A stretch of DNA of 64,000 bases from positions 64,001 to 128,000 of the IMG/VR virus record IMGVR_UViG_3300001528_000174; one strand, given 5' to 3'. Below are positions 13,308-62,728 of this stretch, piece by piece. The stretch comes from a virus (taxonomy: Duplodnaviria; Heunggongvirae; Uroviricota; Caudoviricetes). The notes beneath the pieces were generated by a model that saw only the letters and a program-made list of their open reading frames with translations, had not been told where the DNA came from and searched no databases. The translations under genes and the position numbers were made by a program. The number at the start of each line of letters is the position of its first letter. Within the stretch, counting starts at the first letter, position 1.

Positions 13308-16300
13308 ATGTTAGTTGCGAATTTTACTACACAAGTCCCAACTATGGGTAATACTAGAACATATGAAGATTTTTATAAGTTCTTAGGAGTAAAACCTGCT
13401 CGTTTGGGAATTGTTGCAAATCTCTATCCTTAGAATACCGCTGAATATTTAACTACTTCTCTTAAGAACGTTATTTATAATAACACTAAGAGTGGTAACA
13501 AGTTCCAACGTTTGAACTCGTTAATGTATGAATATGAGATTCAAACTAATCAAATTAAACGTATCGAGTTTGCCGCAGTGCCTGTTGAAGATGGTGCTAA
13601 TGGTACAGAAATTACTTTTGCTTTCAAAGAAAATTACTATCAGAAGTATGACATCTTTATGATTGAAGGTTCTAGACAGCAAGTTATTTGTGTAACTAGA
13701 CCTCAGCGTAGAGCGGATAGCCCACATAAATTGTCCGCTTAAAATTCTTTAAATTGCTTAAAATTCTACATCGCAACTTAGAATAACAAGCAGCGAGGAT
13801 GTGATGACATCAACGTTCATCGACTAGGCGAAAGCCGTAGATTTATTTTTAAATCGAAAAATTGAATTATTATGAGTAAACATATAGTATATTTAACGAC
13901 TAATTTGAAATCCAAAATTAATGGTATAAACAGAATTTATATTGGAGTACATAAAACTGAAAATCCTGATATTTTTGACGGATATATAGGTTGTGGAGTA
14001 AAAATAAATGTACCAAGTTCTTACAGAAATCCTGAAACTCCTTTTCAATATGCTGTTAAGAAATATGGGACAGAAGCCTTTAAGAGAAACACTTTATACG
14101 TATATGACACAGCTAAGGAAGCTTATAACAAAGAACGTGAATTAGTGGACGCTAAATTTATCGCTCAAGACTATACCTATAATGTAGTTTTAGGAGGTGA
14201 ATTTGAAGATCATTATAGACCTCTATATCAATTTGCTTTAGATGGTACTCTTATAAAGTGTTGGGAACGATCTAGTGAAGCTTACGAGTTTTACGGAGTC
14301 CCTAAAGAACGATTTGATAGCTCTAAAAGAAATAAATGTATATTTTTAAACTCTTATTGGTCTACTTCTCCAAAAATAGATGTAACAGAATATTCTAAAA
14401 CACCTATAACTAAAATAACTTATTTATATAGCAAGGGAGGTAAACTCTTAAAAGAATTTGATTCCCAAACTAAATGTGCAGAATACATTGATTACGACAA
14501 AGGAGAGTTAACTAGGGCTATTAAAGAGCAAAGACTTATAAAGAAACAATATTATGTTTCTAATTCTTTAACTGATGAATTTAAACCTTCACCTAGAAAA
14601 AATTATATGAATATGCACTTTTTTGTATATACAGTAAATAATGAGTATATAGGAGAATATGTAGGTAAAGAGTTAATGGGCGTAATAAAATTAAAGTCTT
14701 GGGCGAATATAAATCATATATTTACACATAACAAAAATTGGTATAAAGATTTTTATGTTTCTTTAGAAAAAATAGAAAAAGTTCCTACAAAGAGAATTGG
14801 AAATGGTATATGTGTGGATGTATACACAAATTTTGGAGAATTTATAGAAACATGTAAATCTATAAAAGAAGTTAAAGAAAAATATAATATACCTGCCTTT
14901 AAAATAAAAAATATTCAATATGGAGACAGATATTATAATAACTATATATTTAAATACAATAATAAATGATATAGTCAAAATAAATATTTGAATTATTGGG
15001 AAATACAGGGACGTTTAATTGATGACGATTATAGTTCAGTGCTTGATAAGGATGCTTGTCAAATTGGTATGTTGACAAGATTTTAGAGTAACTCCATACA
15101 TCGCAACTGGTGTGGCAATATTAAGAAATTAATATTTGAAAAATATTTTAATTGCTAGAACCTCCTTAACTGTGCATAATTAAGGGCAATTAGCAGCAAA
15201 GATATAATTAGATTTAATAGTATATAAAGGATAATTCCCTAATATTAAGATTTTTATATAATGTTCAACGAGTATCCGCAAGGAGTAAAATTATGAAATA
15301 TATAGTATACAAAACTACAAATAAAATTAATAACTATATTTATATAGGAGTACATAAAACAGTAAATCCTAATGTTTTTGATAACTATTTAGGCTGTGGC
15401 TGTTACGCTGATTAGCCTAGTACTTATAATAAAGCTAAAACTAAATTCCAACAAGCAGTACAACAGTATGGTCCAAAAAATTTTCATAGAGAAATAATAG
15501 CTACTTATGATAATGAAGATGAGGCTTATTTACTTGAAGAGCAATTAGTAAATGAGGATTTTTTACAGAGGGATGATGTTTATAATATGGTACTTGGGGG
15601 AGTAAATACAGACTTTAATGGTATCTTAGTATTCCGCTATACTTTAGACGGTGTTTATGACAAATCTTATAAAAGTTATGAAGATGCTGCTAGAGATTTA
15701 CAAGTGTAGGCTTCCTCTGTAAGACGTTCAGCTATATTTAAAGTAAAATTAAAAAATTACTATTTTAATACTGATAAAGTAGATAAAATAGATATATCTT
15801 TATATAGTCATGTAAATTCAAAGAAAATAGTATATCGCTATCTTAAAACTGGAGAATTTGATAAAACTTACCAATCTCAAGCAGATGCTGCGGAAGATTT
15901 TAATATAGCAGCTGCTACTGTATTAAGAGCTATACAGATGGGAGTACTAGTAAAGAATACCTATTATTATTCTACAGTTAAGTGTAACTCTTATGATAGA
16001 GCTAGAACTCTATATATAAAAACCAGAAAAGTATATAAATATTCTAGTGATGGAGAATTTATAGCTGAATATGAGACCTAGCAAGAGGCTGAAAAAAACA
16101 ATCCATATAGTAATATAACTAAAGCTATTAGACTTAAATCTGTTGATGAAAATGGATTTATATGGGGATTAGTAAAATTAAAGAATTATAATAAAAAAGC
16201 TAATCGTGCTAAAAGAGTTGCCAAACTAAATAGTGATGGTAACATATTACAAGTATGGAAGTCTGGTAGCGCTTGTTGTAAAGAAGTAGGAAATTCTGTA

Positions 16301-17810
16301 CAAAATGTACTTTCTGGTAAAGGAAAGACTCATAAAGGATTTGTATATAAATATATAGATTAATTTGAAATGAATATTATCCTTAATTATAATATAAGAC
16401 AAGGATAGTGATGTATTCTAACCTATATAGTAATATATAGTAGAGAAATAGAGGCCTGAGATGCATGAAGAGGGAAATGGAAACATTTTAACGTATTATT
16501 AGAGCAATATCTCTCTTACAATCTTTTGGTAGTAGTAAAATTCATAATAAATGCCTTTAATTGCTGGAAAACCTTAAAAGGCAATCAGCAGCGAAGTCTT
16601 AATTTTTAAGAAACGTTCATCGACTAGTCTATTATGACGTAGGGATAATTATTATCTCGAAATGAGGCAAATCTAATTATTAGATTAAGATATAGTCAGC
16701 CTTTATATGAAAATATAAAGAAATACGTATTGCAAATACCAGAGTAATATTTCACGTTTCCGTGGTTATATTACCCAGTTCCGTAATGATGAAACATATT
16801 CAGCTTTATATGCTGCTATGGAAGACACCTTTGTAAATATTTCACAAGGCAAAGGCAACGGAGCTATGCAAGAGACCGTTTATAGAATGGACAAGAAGGA
16901 GAAAGTATTACTTGAAAACTTCATGTTCGTTAAGAACAACGGTCTGTTATTTAACAAGAGTTCCATTGATAAGAATGGAAAATCTACAATTTCTGATCCG
17001 GACACTGGACGTCCGATATATATTGGTCCAGGTTTGATTCCACAAATTGAAGCTTATGCTGATAAGTATGCTTATAATAAGATGACAGTAGATGTTCTTA
17101 ACACTATTGTTACTACTATGGCACAAAAAGCTAATAATCCTAAAGGAAACAAATGGTTATTCGTTATGAATGAAAAGGCTGATGCCGATATTACTACAAC
17201 TTTAGGAGAATATTTGCAGAGCTTCCATACAGATGGAACATTCTTATATTCTATGAAGGCTAATGGAGAAGTAGAGGTAGGAGCTAAAGGTTATACTTCT
17301 TACAACTATTTAGGTAATACATTAGTCTTTACTGTCGATAGAGCTTTCTCTCGCGAATATGGTAATGAGAAGGGCTTTATTGCTTGTATTGATTTAAGCC
17401 CAGATGATTCTACTGGAAAACCAGGTGTTGCACAGTTTACTTTCAAGAATGGCGAGTTCATTCAGAATAAAGTACTTGGCGTAGGTGGTGCCGACGGTTT
17501 ATCATCTGGAGAAGTTTCTAGTGCTATTGCAGCTAGTAAACTTATTGTATGGGGATAAAATTTTAGCCATGTTCCCTTAAAATTCCTTTAATTGCTGGAA
17601 GGTTCTTATGGAATAATCAGCAGCCAAGATTTCTTATGAAATAAGGTTCAACGACTATCTCGAAAGAGAGTAGGAATTAATATTCCGAAATGGGGAATAG
17701 CTTATTAAGCTAAAGATATAGTCTACCCACATTACGATGTGAAATCCAATTTAGATGGCGGAATTGGAGTATTCAATCCTTACAAATCCTTCATTGCACG
17801 TGAAGTGTAA
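13308..17810 (+). CDS. Major capsid protein, spliced from 5 exons (474 aa)
   Basis: Exons 13308-13718, 14991-15097, 16454-16475, 16728-17556 and 17755-17810 total 1425 nt in frame; junctions restore crAss MCP-type text RRAD|NYWE, QSNSM|PEMHEEG|YCKYQSN, IVWG|YGGIGVFNPY. Confidence 0.88.
13719..14990 (+). mobile_element. Group I intron 1 of MCP (IA/phage type), HEG in P8 loop
   Basis: P1 agcggaU/Guccgcu; core aattgc..cagc..cgacta..gatatagtc; terminal G at 14990. Confidence 0.88.
13872..14969 (+). CDS. Intron-encoded GIY-YIG (Seg-like) homing endonuclease with NUMOD1-like repeats
   Basis: HIVYLTTN..IYIGVHKT..DGYIGCG; repeats such as YQFALDGTLIKCW and YSKGGKLLKEFDS; TGA stop overlaps the intron S element. 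Confidence 0.85.
   Translation: MSKHIVYLTTNLKSKINGINRIYIGVHKTENPDIFDGYIGCGVKINVPSSYRNPETPFQYAVKKYGTEAFKRNTLYVYDTAKEAYNKERELVDAKFIAQDYTYNVVLGGEFEDHYRPLYQFALDGTLIKCWERSSEAYEFYGVPKERFDSSKRNKCIFLNSYWSTSPKIDVTEYSKTPITKITYLYSKGGKLLKEFDSQTKCAEYIDYDKGELTRAIKEQRLIKKQYYVSNSLTDEFKPSPRKNYMNMHFFVYTVNNEYIGEYVGKELMGVIKLKSWANINHIFTHNKNWYKDFYVSLEKIEKVPTKRIGNGICVDVYTNFGEFIETCKSIKEVKEKYNIPAFKIKNIQYGDRYYNNYIFKYNNK
15098..16453 (+). mobile_element. Group I intron 2 of MCP, HEG in P7.2 region
   Basis: P1 ccaU/Gugg; core aattgct..agcagc..cgagta..gatgtattc; P9 ctatatag-taa-tatatag; terminal G at 16453. Confidence 0.85.
15293..16363 (+). CDS. Intron-encoded GIY-YIG homing endonuclease, 356 aa (code 15)
   Basis: MKYIVYKTTN..IYIGVHKT..FDNYLGCG; NUMOD1-like repeats; three in-frame TAG; ends TAA. 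Confidence 0.85.
16476..16727 (+). mobile_element. Group I intron 3 of MCP (ORF-less, 252 nt)
   Basis: Core atgcctttaattgctggaa..aatcagcagc..cgacta..gaggca..gatatagtc; terminal G at 16727; IGS 16504-16517 pairs with both exons. Confidence 0.82.
17557..17754 (+). mobile_element. Group I intron 4 of MCP (ORF-less, 198 nt)
   Basis: P1 ggggaU/Guuccc; P10 gccat/atggc; core aattgctggaa..aatcagcagc..cgacta..gatatagtc; terminal G at 17754. Confidence 0.88.
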
Positions 17811-57300: not shown

Positions 57301-60300
57301 GATTTACATAAAGGAATAGTAACTATTAATGGTCAATCATATATAATACAAAATAAACAATTATAGGCTGCTGAAAATGTAATGCCTAACATATACAGTA
57401 AAATATTTGGAGTTGATAATTTATCATTAATAGAAGCTAGAAAGTTATTACAGACTAAAATTGGAAAAGCTGAATATTACCAACCTAAAGCTTTTAAAGG
57501 TAACTATGATTTAGCTTTTACTACTGGAAATAATAAACACACATATATAAGTTTTTCAGAGCCTAACATAAAAAATGATTAGGATGTATTCTATAGAGAG
57601 AAGGATATTTCTAATAATATAATAGCTAAAAAAGAAGGAGAATTAACTTGGTTATATAGAGTATCTAGAGATAAGTAGTTACTTTATAAAGTAGGTCTTC
57701 GTACAAGTGAGGGAGATTTATATGTAGTAAAAGAGTATGGAGTTACTCAATAGAAAGGTTAGGGAGGAACTGATAAATACAATTACTATTATATCGATAT
57801 TAATAATTTAAGAAAGGCTGGTATAAACGATTAGGAAATATCTAGTATAATTAATGATATTTATAATTAGAAATTTTATTTAGGAGTTGAAATAAGTGAT
57901 TCTTAGAGAAATTCTTAGAAAGAAATTGATTTAATAACCGATTCTTTTAAAGAAGCTAATCTTAAATAGTTTATTAACAATCAGTTTTCATTAGTTGGGG
58001 ATGTTCTAGAAGATGCTAGAAATGAGTACTACTAGAATAAACAAAAATATTTAATGTCCTCTTTTGAAAAAACTTTAGATACTGTAGCAGACCGTATCCC
58101 TACTGCTTCTTTACAATCTTTTATGAAGATGAGAACTGTAGGATTTACTTAGATTAATAATAATAGAATTTATGTCTCTCATTTTTAGGCATGGCTTCAA
58201 GGAGCTGACTATGATATAGATAAAGCCTACGTAATGGGCTTTAATTTTGATGATAATGGACAGTTTATTGGATGGAGTAATTTATTTGATTATTCTTCTA
58301 ATGAAGCTCTTGAATCATCTTGTTCATTACCTGTCCCTAGAAATTCTAAATGGGTAAAATCTAATAATGGAATAAATATTGAAAGATATGCTAATGAAGC
58401 ATAGCAAGCATATAATTCAGATAATATTATTCTAAGAAATACTCTTATAAACAAAATATTAGATAGTATAGAATATACTCCCGGAAGTACTATTGAAATT
58501 AACTATTCTAGTCCTATATTAGACTAGTTAATTAATGATATTAATAATCACGAAAGTACTAAATTATCTGGAGATAATAAAATATTAGCTTTCCAAAATG
58601 CAGTATCTTGGACAACTCAAGCTATTGTAAATGATGAAAGAAATTTATTAGATTCCTATAGTCCTACCAATGTAGAAGGAATGAAATAGGTAGTTAAAGA
58701 TAAAAAGCTTGCTAGTGATAGTAGTACCTATACATAGTGGAATCCTGCTACTAAGTGGGTATTATAGGAGGAAAATTTAATTGGTAAAAATGTAATTTCT
58801 GTGGCAGCTAATGCTGAAAAAGTATATTTTAGTTTGTTACATTATTATAACGAGATAGTAAGACACCCTGAAAAGTATAATAAAGATTTATATACTTTTG
58901 CTAAGTCTTTTGAAGGGGTGTTTACAAATGCTGACGGTACTCCAATTATAAAAGAAACTATTGGAGGTATTAATTTTAATAATGATAGTAAATTAAATAA
59001 ATTATCTATTTTACTACTTAGTTCTAACTCTGAGCTAAATAATATTAAAGATTCTCTTATTTAGGAATTATATTAGGGTAATACTACAGAATATGAACAA
59101 GATTTTATAAATGCTTATAAAAATAATGAATATTCTGAGAAATTATAGACTTTATTAAATAATATAGATGTTAAATTAAGCGAGAATGAAGCTAGATATA
59201 TGCCTTTGATGTAGTCATTAATTAATAATTCTACAGATCCTTCTGATTTAATTTCTCAATTACTTAACTCAGCGACGGATTAACATATAAAATATTCTTT
59301 GATGATACAAATATTTGTATAAACTAAAAGTAGTTAATAATTTAATATATAAGCTATGAATAAAATTTCAGAAGAAACTATTTTAAAAATCAAAGAATTA
59401 CATGACAAGGGATTAAGTAATTTAAAAATTGCACAAGAATTAAATATTAGTAATGGTACTGTCAGTAAGTACTTAAAAGATAGATTTGGAATAATTAAAA
59501 AGAAGTGTGTAAAACAAATAGATTTTGATAAGTTTAAAGAACTATGGAATAATGGGAAATCTGATAAAGAGATTGCAGATTTTTTTGGAGTAAAAGAAGT
59601 AACTGTTAAAACTTATAGAACTCGTGGAGAAAATGCAGGAAAATTTAATAAAATTGTGAATTTTTCTCAAGAAGAGCATTCTTTATCAGAAATACAAGAT
59701 CAATTTATTAGAGGTTCTCTATTAGGAGATTTAAATTTATCAAAACCAACAGGTAGTCATGGTAAAAATTCCAGATTAGCTTTAGTACATAGTAAAAAGC
59801 AAGAAGAACTGTTTATGGCTAAAGTGAAAATATTAGAAAATTTTATGGGAAGTTATAAATTACAAACTCCTCCACCTGATAAACGTACAGGTAAAGTTTA
59901 TGAAACTTGGAGAGGAAATTCTAAGGCTCATAAAGTATTTACCGATATATACAACGAGTTATATGTTGATGGAATAAAACATTTATCTAAAGAATTTTTA
60001 AACACTGTTGTTCATCCTATAGCATTAGCATATTGGTTTATGGATGATGGCACTTTTAAAGGTACTTTGGCTACACATTGTTTTACTTATGAAGAAAATG
60101 AATTATTACTAAATTGGATGGATGAAAAATGGGAAGTATGCTGTACTATACAGAAAGAATTATCTAAATATAAATTATATATAAAAACTGAATCTAGATT
60201 TCTTTTTGAGAAAATTATTTTTCCTTATATGATTCCTTCTATGTATTACAAATTAAAATTTCTTGAACAATTACAAGCAGAGTCCGTTTAAAACTCGGTG

Positions 60301-62728
60301 AACTCAGGGAAACTCCTACGTTAGAGGACAATCCTGAGCCAAGCCTAGAATAACTCTAGGAAGGTGCAACGACTATCGAAAGACAATAATGAATCAAGTA
60401 GAGTAGGAATGATTATTCCGAAGCGCCGAGTGTTCTTTTTTAAAGAATAATGATATAGTCTAAATCTTATAGTAATATAGGATATGATTGAATGCGAAAG
60501 AGCTCATTTTGAATAAAATAAATGCAGGAATGAACTTAGCTGGAGTACATGGCTATTTAATGATAATGGGATTTTCATTGGATTAGATTGTAGATTTAAT
60601 GACTTCTCCAGTAGTACGACTTATAGATAGATTAAGTAAATCTGATATGTTCTCGGATATGGGAATTAGAAGTAATAGCGTCTAGAAAGTACTAGATTAG
60701 TTAATTTCTAATAATCCAGAAAAACAGAAAGACTGGTTTAAATATATTTTAGACCCGACATCTATTAATAAATATGACCCAGGTTAGGAAACTATTGTAG
60801 GACAAACTTTATTAGATTTATTAAATAATACTTCTATTACTATGGAAGATGGTGCTACTACATTTAGTTTAATAGATGGCATTTATGTGGAAACTTTTGA
60901 TAATCCTATGAGTGGTGAGAGCACAACTAAAACTTATAAAAGATTAAGAGATATTCCAAAGTAGTTTTAGGAAGATGTAGAATTAGGATTGCGACAAAAG
61001 TATAATGAAGTATTCTTAAATAAATTAAAAGGTTTTAAATCAGTACATAGAGGAGCTAGAGAGACTACAGCAGCTGCACAATTATTATTTAGTATGAATC
61101 AAGGTATTCGTACTCAACAAAATGAATAGTTAGCTTTTGAAAATCGTTTTAATAATTTTATAAAAGGATTCGATGAAATTCTTCCTAGTATTGATGATAT
61201 TAAAAAATTACAAGAAAAATACTCAGGAAAACTATTACCTAGTGCTTTAAATGAGCAAGGTACAGATTTAGCAGTAGATTTAGAAGCATTATTTAACAAA
61301 GTAAAAGAAATACATCCTAACTATTCTAATAACTATATTTATAGTATAGTAGCGCAAAGTATTCAAGCAGGAATATACAAAAACTTTAGTTTCTATGAAT
61401 ACATGAAAAATACTCCTATACGAGTACAGGAGTTAGATGGAACTATCCGAAATACTAATTATAGAACTTTAGCCACAGAGTACTATAATTTAATAAAAGA
61501 TTCTATAAATATATTAGATGTTATAAATCATTCTGATTAGTACAATGTTTATTTAGAATTACAAAAAGCTGCTACTATAAGTACTGATATAGTCTCTTAG
61601 AAGAGTTAGTTAGTTAGAAAATTCTATGAGATACTTCGTAGGGATAGAGGCTATATAGACTCCAAAAAATTAAATCAAATATAGAGTTATATTGATTAGG
61701 CTTATATTCAATAGTATTTAACTAATATCAGATTAAAAGTAGAAAATGGAACAATACCATTTTCATTTCCATTATAGTCTGGTCAAAAGTTATTAAAAGA
61801 TAGTAGACCTGTAAAAGTAATTTCTAACACTGAAGTTACTATGGATAGTCGTGATAACATTGCTACATTTAAATATTGGTTTCATAAATATCTAATTCCT
61901 TCTTTAAAAAAAGGTTCTTACTGGGATGGTGAAAAAATGTAGGAATTTTCTGAAAATAGATTTATTAATGGTTTATTAGTAAAAAAAGACCATGGAGTTC
62001 CTTCGTTATCTTTAGATATTGATATGTTAAATATTAGTAAATCTAGAGAATCTACATTACGATATGCTGCTTATGAGGAAGACTTTAATAAACTTATTAA
62101 TTATAAAATAGGTTAGTTTAATTTATAGGATATATTTATGATTTATAATTTATTTGTAAATTAGAATAAATATGGATATAATAGATTAACTACTTTATTT
62201 TAGAGCAAGTTATTAGAGGATGTGCATAATATTGGTAATCCTTAGTATATGTATAGTGCTTTAATGCAATGGTATCAACATCTAGGACAGGCTGATAAAA
62301 ATAATATTTAGCAAACTATAGATACTAAAGATTTACCTATTGAAGAGGCTATAAATGCTTTAGGAGTTACTTTGGAAGGATTTGATATATACTCGGCTCC
62401 TTATGTAGAATCTCTTACATAGGCAGGTAATAATAGAATGGTACGTATAAAAGATACTAGAAATACTCCTACAAATGGACTAATAATGTTATATGATACT
62501 AAAAATCATAAGTTTGTAGACGCTTTATCAAAAATGTCTGAAGGTAAAGATAATCAGAGAGAGCTAATAGAACGATTAAAAATAAATAAAGAATATTATC
62601 CTATAAATATAGATTTACAAGAACAGATTAATAAATTAGAATAGATGTTTAAAGATATTGTTTCAGGAGGCTCTAGCCTATACGATATGACAGTATCTGG
62701 TAAAGTAAAAATTAGAGTTAATTGCTAA
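51334..62728 (+). CDS. Virion-associated two-barrel RNA polymerase (beta/beta'-like fusion), spliced, about 3394 aa
   Basis: Exons 51334-59280 and 60491-62728; catalytic WLQGADYDIDK (58195-58224), DRIPT, AMDGSTFINP, DKK..KHA, HYGVQLDADH; junction SATD|NAKEL. Confidence 0.88.
59281..60490 (+). mobile_element. Group I intron in the RNAP gene, HEG in P1 loop
   Basis: P1 acggaU (59275-59280) pairs with Guccgu (60282-60287); P3 ctcggtg/cgccgag; P7 gacta/tagtc; terminal G at 60490. Confidence 0.88.
59356..60291 (+). CDS. Intron-encoded LAGLIDADG homing endonuclease with two N-terminal HTH domains
   Basis: FIRGSLLGD and LAYWFMDDG motifs; HTH-like GLSNLKIAQELNISNGTVSKYL and GKSDKEIADFFGVKEVTV. Confidence 0.85.
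   Translation: MNKISEETILKIKELHDKGLSNLKIAQELNISNGTVSKYLKDRFGIIKKKCVKQIDFDKFKELWNNGKSDKEIADFFGVKEVTVKTYRTRGENAGKFNKIVNFSQEEHSLSEIQDQFIRGSLLGDLNLSKPTGSHGKNSRLALVHSKKQEELFMAKVKILENFMGSYKLQTPPPDKRTGKVYETWRGNSKAHKVFTDIYNELYVDGIKHLSKEFLNTVVHPIALAYWFMDDGTFKGTLATHCFTYEENELLLNWMDEKWEVCCTIQKELSKYKLYIKTESRFLFEKIIFPYMIPSMYYKLKFLEQLQAESV

Follow-up and report, generated by a model that had tools for sequence, protein, structure and literature searches.

The third intron of a crAss-type major capsid protein (MCP) gene very probably splices after an adenosine, A16475, which pairs with a uridine, U16510, of the intron's own guide. At this position the exon before 'virtually all' group I introns ends in a U paired to G (PMC2504315, PMC4227781). 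We think it rather likely that a natural ribozyme lineage traded the U·G pair for A-U, with a purine as the leaving nucleotide, and that the resulting reaction is accurate and fast enough for the most abundant virion protein, the cut site being set by the P1/P10 register and by backbone contacts. The gene occupies bases 13308-17810 of the window, that is, of the whole 64,000-nucleotide stretch that was analysed. Its homologs match the Pfam family Crass_capsid, and it is interrupted by four introns. The exons, the introns and the helices of intron 3 are listed in the table.

The window belongs to an IMG/VR record of 180,499 bp that is rated 100% complete. Two in-frame TAG codons are present in the MCP gene, at 13431-13433 and 15084-15086, and three more in the endonuclease ORF of intron 2. 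At the second of the MCP sites, a 58%-identical homolog (L018) carries CAA instead, indicating that TAG is read as Gln. No tRNA genes were found within the window, so the TAG suppressor must sit elsewhere in the genome. Phages of the Zeta group of crAss-like phages have genomes of 145-192 kb, recode a stop codon (TAG/TGA) and carry the MCP in five fragments owing to group I introns, according to the accessible passages of Yutin et al. 2021 (PMC7886860). The phage studied here resembles the group as described there in its 180 kb, in TAG being Gln and in the four MCP introns. In those same passages the introns are found through protein domains, and neither an analysis of splice-site pairs nor a description of an A-U pair is given.

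Features of the MCP gene and of intron 3 (positions in the window)
Feature	Position	Strand	Description
MCP exon 1	13308..13718	+	ends ...gcggaU; collinear with intron-less MCP alleles
Intron 1	13719..14990	+	1272 nt; 365-aa endonuclease-like ORF 13872-14969; U·G, guide aauu[G]uccgcuu at 13733
MCP exon 2	14991..15097	+	107 nt; in-frame TAG 15084-15086
Intron 2	15098..16453	+	1356 nt; U·G, guide ggu[G]ugg at 15112; ORF 15293-16363, GIY-YIG/NUMOD-like homing endonuclease
MCP exon 3	16454..16475	+	22-nt micro-exon g cct gag atg cat gaa gag gga; aligned to intron-less alleles
A(-1)	16475	+	last exon nucleotide, predicted 5' splice site; pairs with U16510
Intron 3	16476..16727	+	252 nt; ORF-less group I; ends in omega-G16727
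P10 guide part	16504..16509	+	gcaaua; pairs with 16728-16733
P1 guide part	16510..16517	+	ucucucuu; U16510 is at the G position of homologs
Core helices	16552..16669	+	P3 16552-57/16664-69, P4 16561-67/16585-91, P5 16572-73/16580-81 (Rfam alignment)
Core helices, continued		+	P6 16592-93/16614-15, P6a 16597-602/16606-11, P7 5' strand 16622-26
P7.1 and P7.2	16627-38 and 16642-58	+	hairpins (Rfam alignment)
P8 to P9	16670..16720	+	P8 16670-86, J8/7 16687-92, P7 3' strand 16693-97, P9 16701-20 with GAAA loop
MCP exon 4	16728..17556	+	begins uauugc, the P10 exon strand; ends ggggaU
Intron 4	17557..17754	+	198 nt; Rfam 77.4 bits; U·G, guide gccau[G]uuccc at 17571
MCP exon 5 and stop codon	17755..17810	+	

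Judged by its sequence, intron 3 is an IA-like group I intron. It matches the full length (1-253) of the Rfam model RF00028 with 70.0 bits (gathering score 50, E 1e-15); the group I matches lie at 16507-16719 and, with 77.4 bits, at 17533-17743. The hairpins P7.1 and P7.2 are present between P7 and P3', as in subgroup IA. The omega-G, G16727, is located immediately 5' of the exon defined by intron-less alleles and is invariant in the variants of the intron. No ORF was found in the 252 nt, and hence no intron-encoded homing endonuclease. Intron 3 has every group I feature that was tested bar the wobble pair, whose place is taken by A16475-U16510 in all six variants known. The U·G wobble, though near-universal, is no formal requirement for membership of the RF00028 family, and exceptions to it are documented (PMC4227781).

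A blastn search with the core of intron 3 returned matches to introns of Bacillus, Staphylococcus and other phages. The IA introns of phages (T4 td, nrdB and sunY; Twort orf142; Bacillus SPO1 and SPbeta) share with intron 3 the P3-P9 core with P7.1/P7.2, the omega-G, the P1/P10 internal guide and a location in an essential gene. To our knowledge, all of these introns cut after a U paired to G, whereas intron 3 is predicted to cut after an A paired to U. The minimum free energy fold of 16454-16551 includes P1, and its overall z-score (-0.57) is no better than that of shuffles. In this fold AAUG, at the very start of the intron, and CAUU at 16484-87 make up a small hairpin that stacks on P1. This hairpin is probably not conserved, as A and U replace G16479 and G16480 in two variants.

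One basis for the assignment of the cut site is the internal guide. The last eight bases of exon 3, aagaggga (16468-16475), form an 8-bp P1 with the guide, interrupted by no mismatch and including one G·U at 16473/16512, and the first six bases of exon 4 form a perfect 6-bp P10. The 14-nt guide (16504-16517) therefore pairs uninterruptedly with the ligated exons, and the boundary between P1 and P10 is found at A16475-U16510 and A16509-U16728. The preliminary description of this locus, made from the letters alone, had reported the same 14-nt complementarity, with the same P1 and P10, and the letters are as it stated. When the first 120 bases of the intron were dinucleotide-shuffled 5000 times, 10 shuffles gave at least 14 contiguous pairs across the junction. 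P1 contains a single wobble, the reversed G·U at -3, and there is no U·G at or adjoining the cut site. When the guide register was slipped by 2 on the (UC)n run, inspection by eye gave fewer pairs and still no U·G. A guide scan of MCP introns 1, 2 and 4 found U(-1) paired to G in each, in line with the earlier claim of a U-G pair in the other introns for the three that were checked.

Evidence on the junction that is independent of the guide comes from alleles that lack the intron. Ten intron-less alleles (L001-L009 from IMG/VR, and MT835492) are 97-98% identical in amino acid sequence over exon 4. The protein of all ten reads MHEEGYCKYQSN at the junction, within ...MLTRF(TAG)SNSMPEMHEEG YCKYQSNISRF..., and the DNA reads gaagaaggt/tactgc; EEGY is also kept in more distant homologs. 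Joining the exons of the window at 13718/14991, 15097/16454, 16475/16728 and 17556/17755 yields an MCP of 1425 nt and 474 aa, of which 466 residues are identical to the protein of the intron-less allele L001 in a gap-free alignment. Because the letters on one side of each junction differ from those on the other, the junctions cannot slide. Since the intron-less alleles read HEEG/YCKYQSN, the cuts would fall after A16475 and after omega-G16727, and by comparison of sequences this is the only frame-preserving junction that matches those alleles. Gly-Tyr would likewise result from cuts after G16474 and C16726, but the intron would then end in C, and this alternative was rejected. The join HEEG/YCKYQSN, which the preliminary description had matched to other crAss MCPs, is the one in the ten alleles, and the alignment to intron-less alleles that it had proposed as a check places the junction at A16475. 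Its cut after A16475 paired to U is supported by reading frame, alleles and guide together. The predicted ligated exon sequence is ...CATGAAGAGGGA/TATTGCAAATA..., and the predicted tryptic junction peptide ends in ...SNSMPEMHEEGYCK.

Could the intron be active and yet use another 5' site, either U16478 or a cryptic one, producing a slightly different capsid protein or several products side by side? Watson-Crick pairing at the cut site reportedly lowers fidelity in Tetrahymena. U16478 is in frame, only 3 nt downstream, and would restore the near-universal U at -1 (PMC2504315, PMC4227781). However, a cut there would insert an Asn between G and Y, as had been pointed out before, and no homolog has this Asn, from 98% down to 42% identity. 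Furthermore, the P1 register would set U16478 against A16507. By eye, the 5' region (first 70 nt) of the intron contains no G that precedes a complement of gggaaa. A G-led guide for U16478 is thus lacking there, and the earlier remark that this U lacks a G partner holds on that inspection. Also, the P1/P10 boundary falls exactly at A16475/U16728, and homologous introns cut at the aligned position. Use of another site is, on these grounds, very unlikely, and A16475 is taken as the cut site below.

Homologous introns inserted at the same position, between the Gly and Tyr codons (the G/Y site), differ from the window type at precisely this pair. All of those found have an exon U and a guide G, whereas the window type has an exon A and a guide U. 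In three homologs with 42-46% amino acid identity (L011, L013 and L015), the exon ends in ...gagggT and a guide G lies opposite this U. Nine contigs (L019-L027) have an exon-4 product identical to that of the window and a homologous intron with a 240-aa ORF in P8. In the seven that reach far enough upstream (L019-L023, L025 and L026), the exon ends in ...gaaggT and the guide is GCTTAATA[G]CTTTCCTC. Another contig, L046, combines the L019-type intron with intron 2; its exon ends in ggT and its guide is GCTTAATA[G]C.... A counterpart with the same P1/P10 core comes from a more distant phage (L047/L048), whose 186-nt ORF-less intron follows exon gaagagggT and has the guide AGCAATA[G]CTCTCT. Here the six P10 letters and the six cut-adjacent P1 letters are identical to those of the window, and only the two cut-site partners differ.

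The homologs at the G/Y site align with the window intron in the P1 loop, in J6/7-P7-P7.1 and at the 3' end. As U·G occurs in all of them, L047 included, the A and U of the window point to a double change from a U·G ancestor. Alignment with the L019-type homolog, inspected by eye, revealed additional double changes in helices, and no obvious compensating change in J4/5 or J8/7 relative to the U·G homolog. The window type does not have the 240-aa ORF of the L019 type, its closest U·G homolog, and either loss or gain of the ORF would account for this. The ORF itself, in the P8 loop (L019:1922-2910), has no Pfam match.

How well is the A-U state maintained? Further copies of the window type were retrieved from ENA and Logan assemblies via the 90% cluster of the intron-2 endonuclease. 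Six distinct variants were obtained (the window; L032-35; L040/41; L043; L044; L045), from at least 10 samples in several accession series, with 30 of 252 positions variable. A(-1), U16510, the entire guide, both exon strands and the omega-G are kept in all six, and exon 3 is unchanged. Among 72 modelled pairs, 61 are invariant, five show compensatory changes, four have one-sided changes that preserve a wobble, and two are broken. The compensatory changes are located in P3 (C16555-G16666 to U-A), P5 (C16572-G16581 to U-A), P6 (G16593-C16614 to A-U) and twice in P7.2 (G16644-C16656 to A-U and A16645-U16655 to G-C). The broken pairs are a terminal pair of P2 and a loop-closing pair of P8, in one variant each, and none is in the core. 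The retention of A-U, the compensatory changes and the intact core argue against both error and decay and for purifying selection on the ribozyme; on this comparative evidence intron 3 is apparently a selected, working ribozyme. All copies were reached through the neighbouring endonuclease and form a biased set, and as they share ancestry their six agreements do not count as six independent events.

Three additional runs, belonging to two studies, have DNA contigs that cover the full intron, which shows that it is present in those runs. Exact patterns specific to the intron had no match in IMG/VR or JGI metagenome contigs, and neither did the ligated-exon sequence scanned as DNA; the record itself or near copies were possibly masked in these scans. 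The intron-2 endonuclease had no related loci in IMG/VR, and an exact look-up of its protein was empty.

The same variants bear on whether the A, the U or both result from sequencing or assembly, or whether the window is chimeric, joining an intron-less GGA allele to one that bears the intron. The window was assembled from a metagenome whose phage population includes many MCP alleles, which leaves room for such an error. However, the same two letters occur in independent assemblies made with different assemblers in different studies (L032-L035, L040, L041, L043-L045). The guide also fits the flanking letters of the window itself (gag gga and tat) rather than those of the intron-less alleles (gaa ggt and tac). 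As far as sequence data allow, an artefact is refuted, and the chance that one explains the pair is negligible.

It is also conceivable that the intron self-splices poorly or not at all, in which case the phage would be crippled, or would depend on intron-less relatives that co-infect or on a protein helper. Loss of U·G is strongly deleterious in model ribozymes (PMC1891724, PMC12355055). The MCP cluster has 991 members, and most of the members read are intron-less 474-aa proteins; samples of the same kinds also contain intron-less relatives. Decay of this sort would hardly leave five compensatory changes and an untouched core, guide and omega-G in six variants, however. The intron recurs across the samples on contigs of 70-180 kb, and it resides in an indispensable gene, the remainder of which is intact. 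We consider an impaired intron unlikely. A need for a protein cofactor is compatible with splicing at A16475 through the A-U pair.

Experiments on model introns indicate what the A-U pair might cost. In the Tetrahymena ribozyme, replacement of U·G with a Watson-Crick C-G pair raises the rate of P1 undocking ~80-fold (PMC1891724), and in an Anabaena permuted intron a swap of T-G to G-T at the cut-site position abolished the reaction (PMC12355055). These effects lead to the expectation that an A-U pair is a handicap.

Natural departures from the rule are of two kinds. The group B IStrons, for example BcISt1, were experimentally shown to splice after G (Tourasse et al. 2014, PMC4227781). BcISt1 is like intron 3 in being a bacterial group I ribozyme with a non-U before the cut, but its U·G persists one position away, ahead of an internal loop (PMC4227781), while there is no U·G at or next to the cut site in intron 3. 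The searchable literature yielded no report of a natural A-U pair at a cut site, which is not proof of absence. Two mitochondrial group I introns of Aspergillus nidulans reportedly have C·G at the 5' splice site, to go by the title of a 1995 article by Hur & Waring (NAR 23:4466). As far as that title goes, they resemble the window intron in having a natural Watson-Crick pair in place of U·G. They would differ from it in retaining the guide G and having a pyrimidine as the exon nucleotide, whereas in the window both partners are changed and the leaving nucleotide is a purine.

How might an intron splice accurately with this pair? In the most likely model, the two steps of the group I reaction are the usual ones and the cut site is marked by the P1/P10 register, not by a wobble pair. 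An exogenous G would attack the phosphate after A16475, and omega-G16727 would then take its place in the P7 site. The 3'-OH of A16475 would attack the phosphate before U16728, held in position by P10, to give ...HEEG/YCKYQSN.... The minor-groove contact that is made to the amino group of the guide G could not form with U16510. As the basis of P1 docking, backbone contacts and the long P1/P10 would take the place of G amino group recognition. The long P1, the perfect P10 of 6 bp (the L019 type has 5 bp) or a protein helper may compensate for the cost of the A-U pair.

The A-U pair would be the derived state, in which an ancestor with the same guide but an exon U and a guide G, as in L047, changed both partners. 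A likely route is that the intron came to lie in an allele with a GGA glycine codon, creating an A·G mismatch that a change of the guide G to U then repaired. Either single reversion would again produce a mismatch, so the A-U state would be locked in. The origin of the pair was probably recombinational. Exon 3 differs from close intron-less alleles by four synonymous changes in 22 nt, suggesting co-conversion from a more distant donor, and gaagaggga/tat occurs in the divergent intron-less allele L018. ORF-less copies of the intron (window type and L047 type) were seen only beside intron 2, in a search that ran via the intron-2 endonuclease and was biased accordingly. This association suggests that the ORF-less intron 3 may spread by hitch-hiking, that is, by co-conversion with intron 2, an endonuclease intron 22 nt away.

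Design rules for trans-splicing ribozymes and for circular RNA made with permuted introns build on the U·G pair: the guide has to end in G and the target to have a U. If a naturally selected A-U intron works, the rule would be breakable in vivo, and the range of target sites for engineered ribozymes would be wider. The introns at the G/Y site offer a matched natural set for enzymology, consisting of the L047 type (U·G with the same guide), the L019 type (U·G) and the window type (A-U). They also illustrate how an intron guide may co-evolve with synonymous changes of its exon where intron insertions cluster in a capsid gene of gut phages.

A putative fifth group I intron lies at ~60225-60482 of the window; it scored 87.9 bits in a genome search and was not among the two introns in the whole-window cmscan at the gathering threshold. 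Within the MCP gene, three intron insertion sites were observed within 31 nt: after ...ccaU (intron 2), after ...gcaU, and the G/Y site. The ...gcaU site, 9 nt upstream of the G/Y site, holds a different intron, with U·G by eye, in nine contigs (L028-L031, L036-L039 and L042), at ~100-440 nt after the endonuclease gene. Near-identical phages differ in their combinations of introns at the three sites, alongside the intron-less majority of the cluster members read. Micro-exon 3 is flanked by two group I introns and serves both, its first bases in the P10 of intron 2 and its last eight in the P1 of intron 3.
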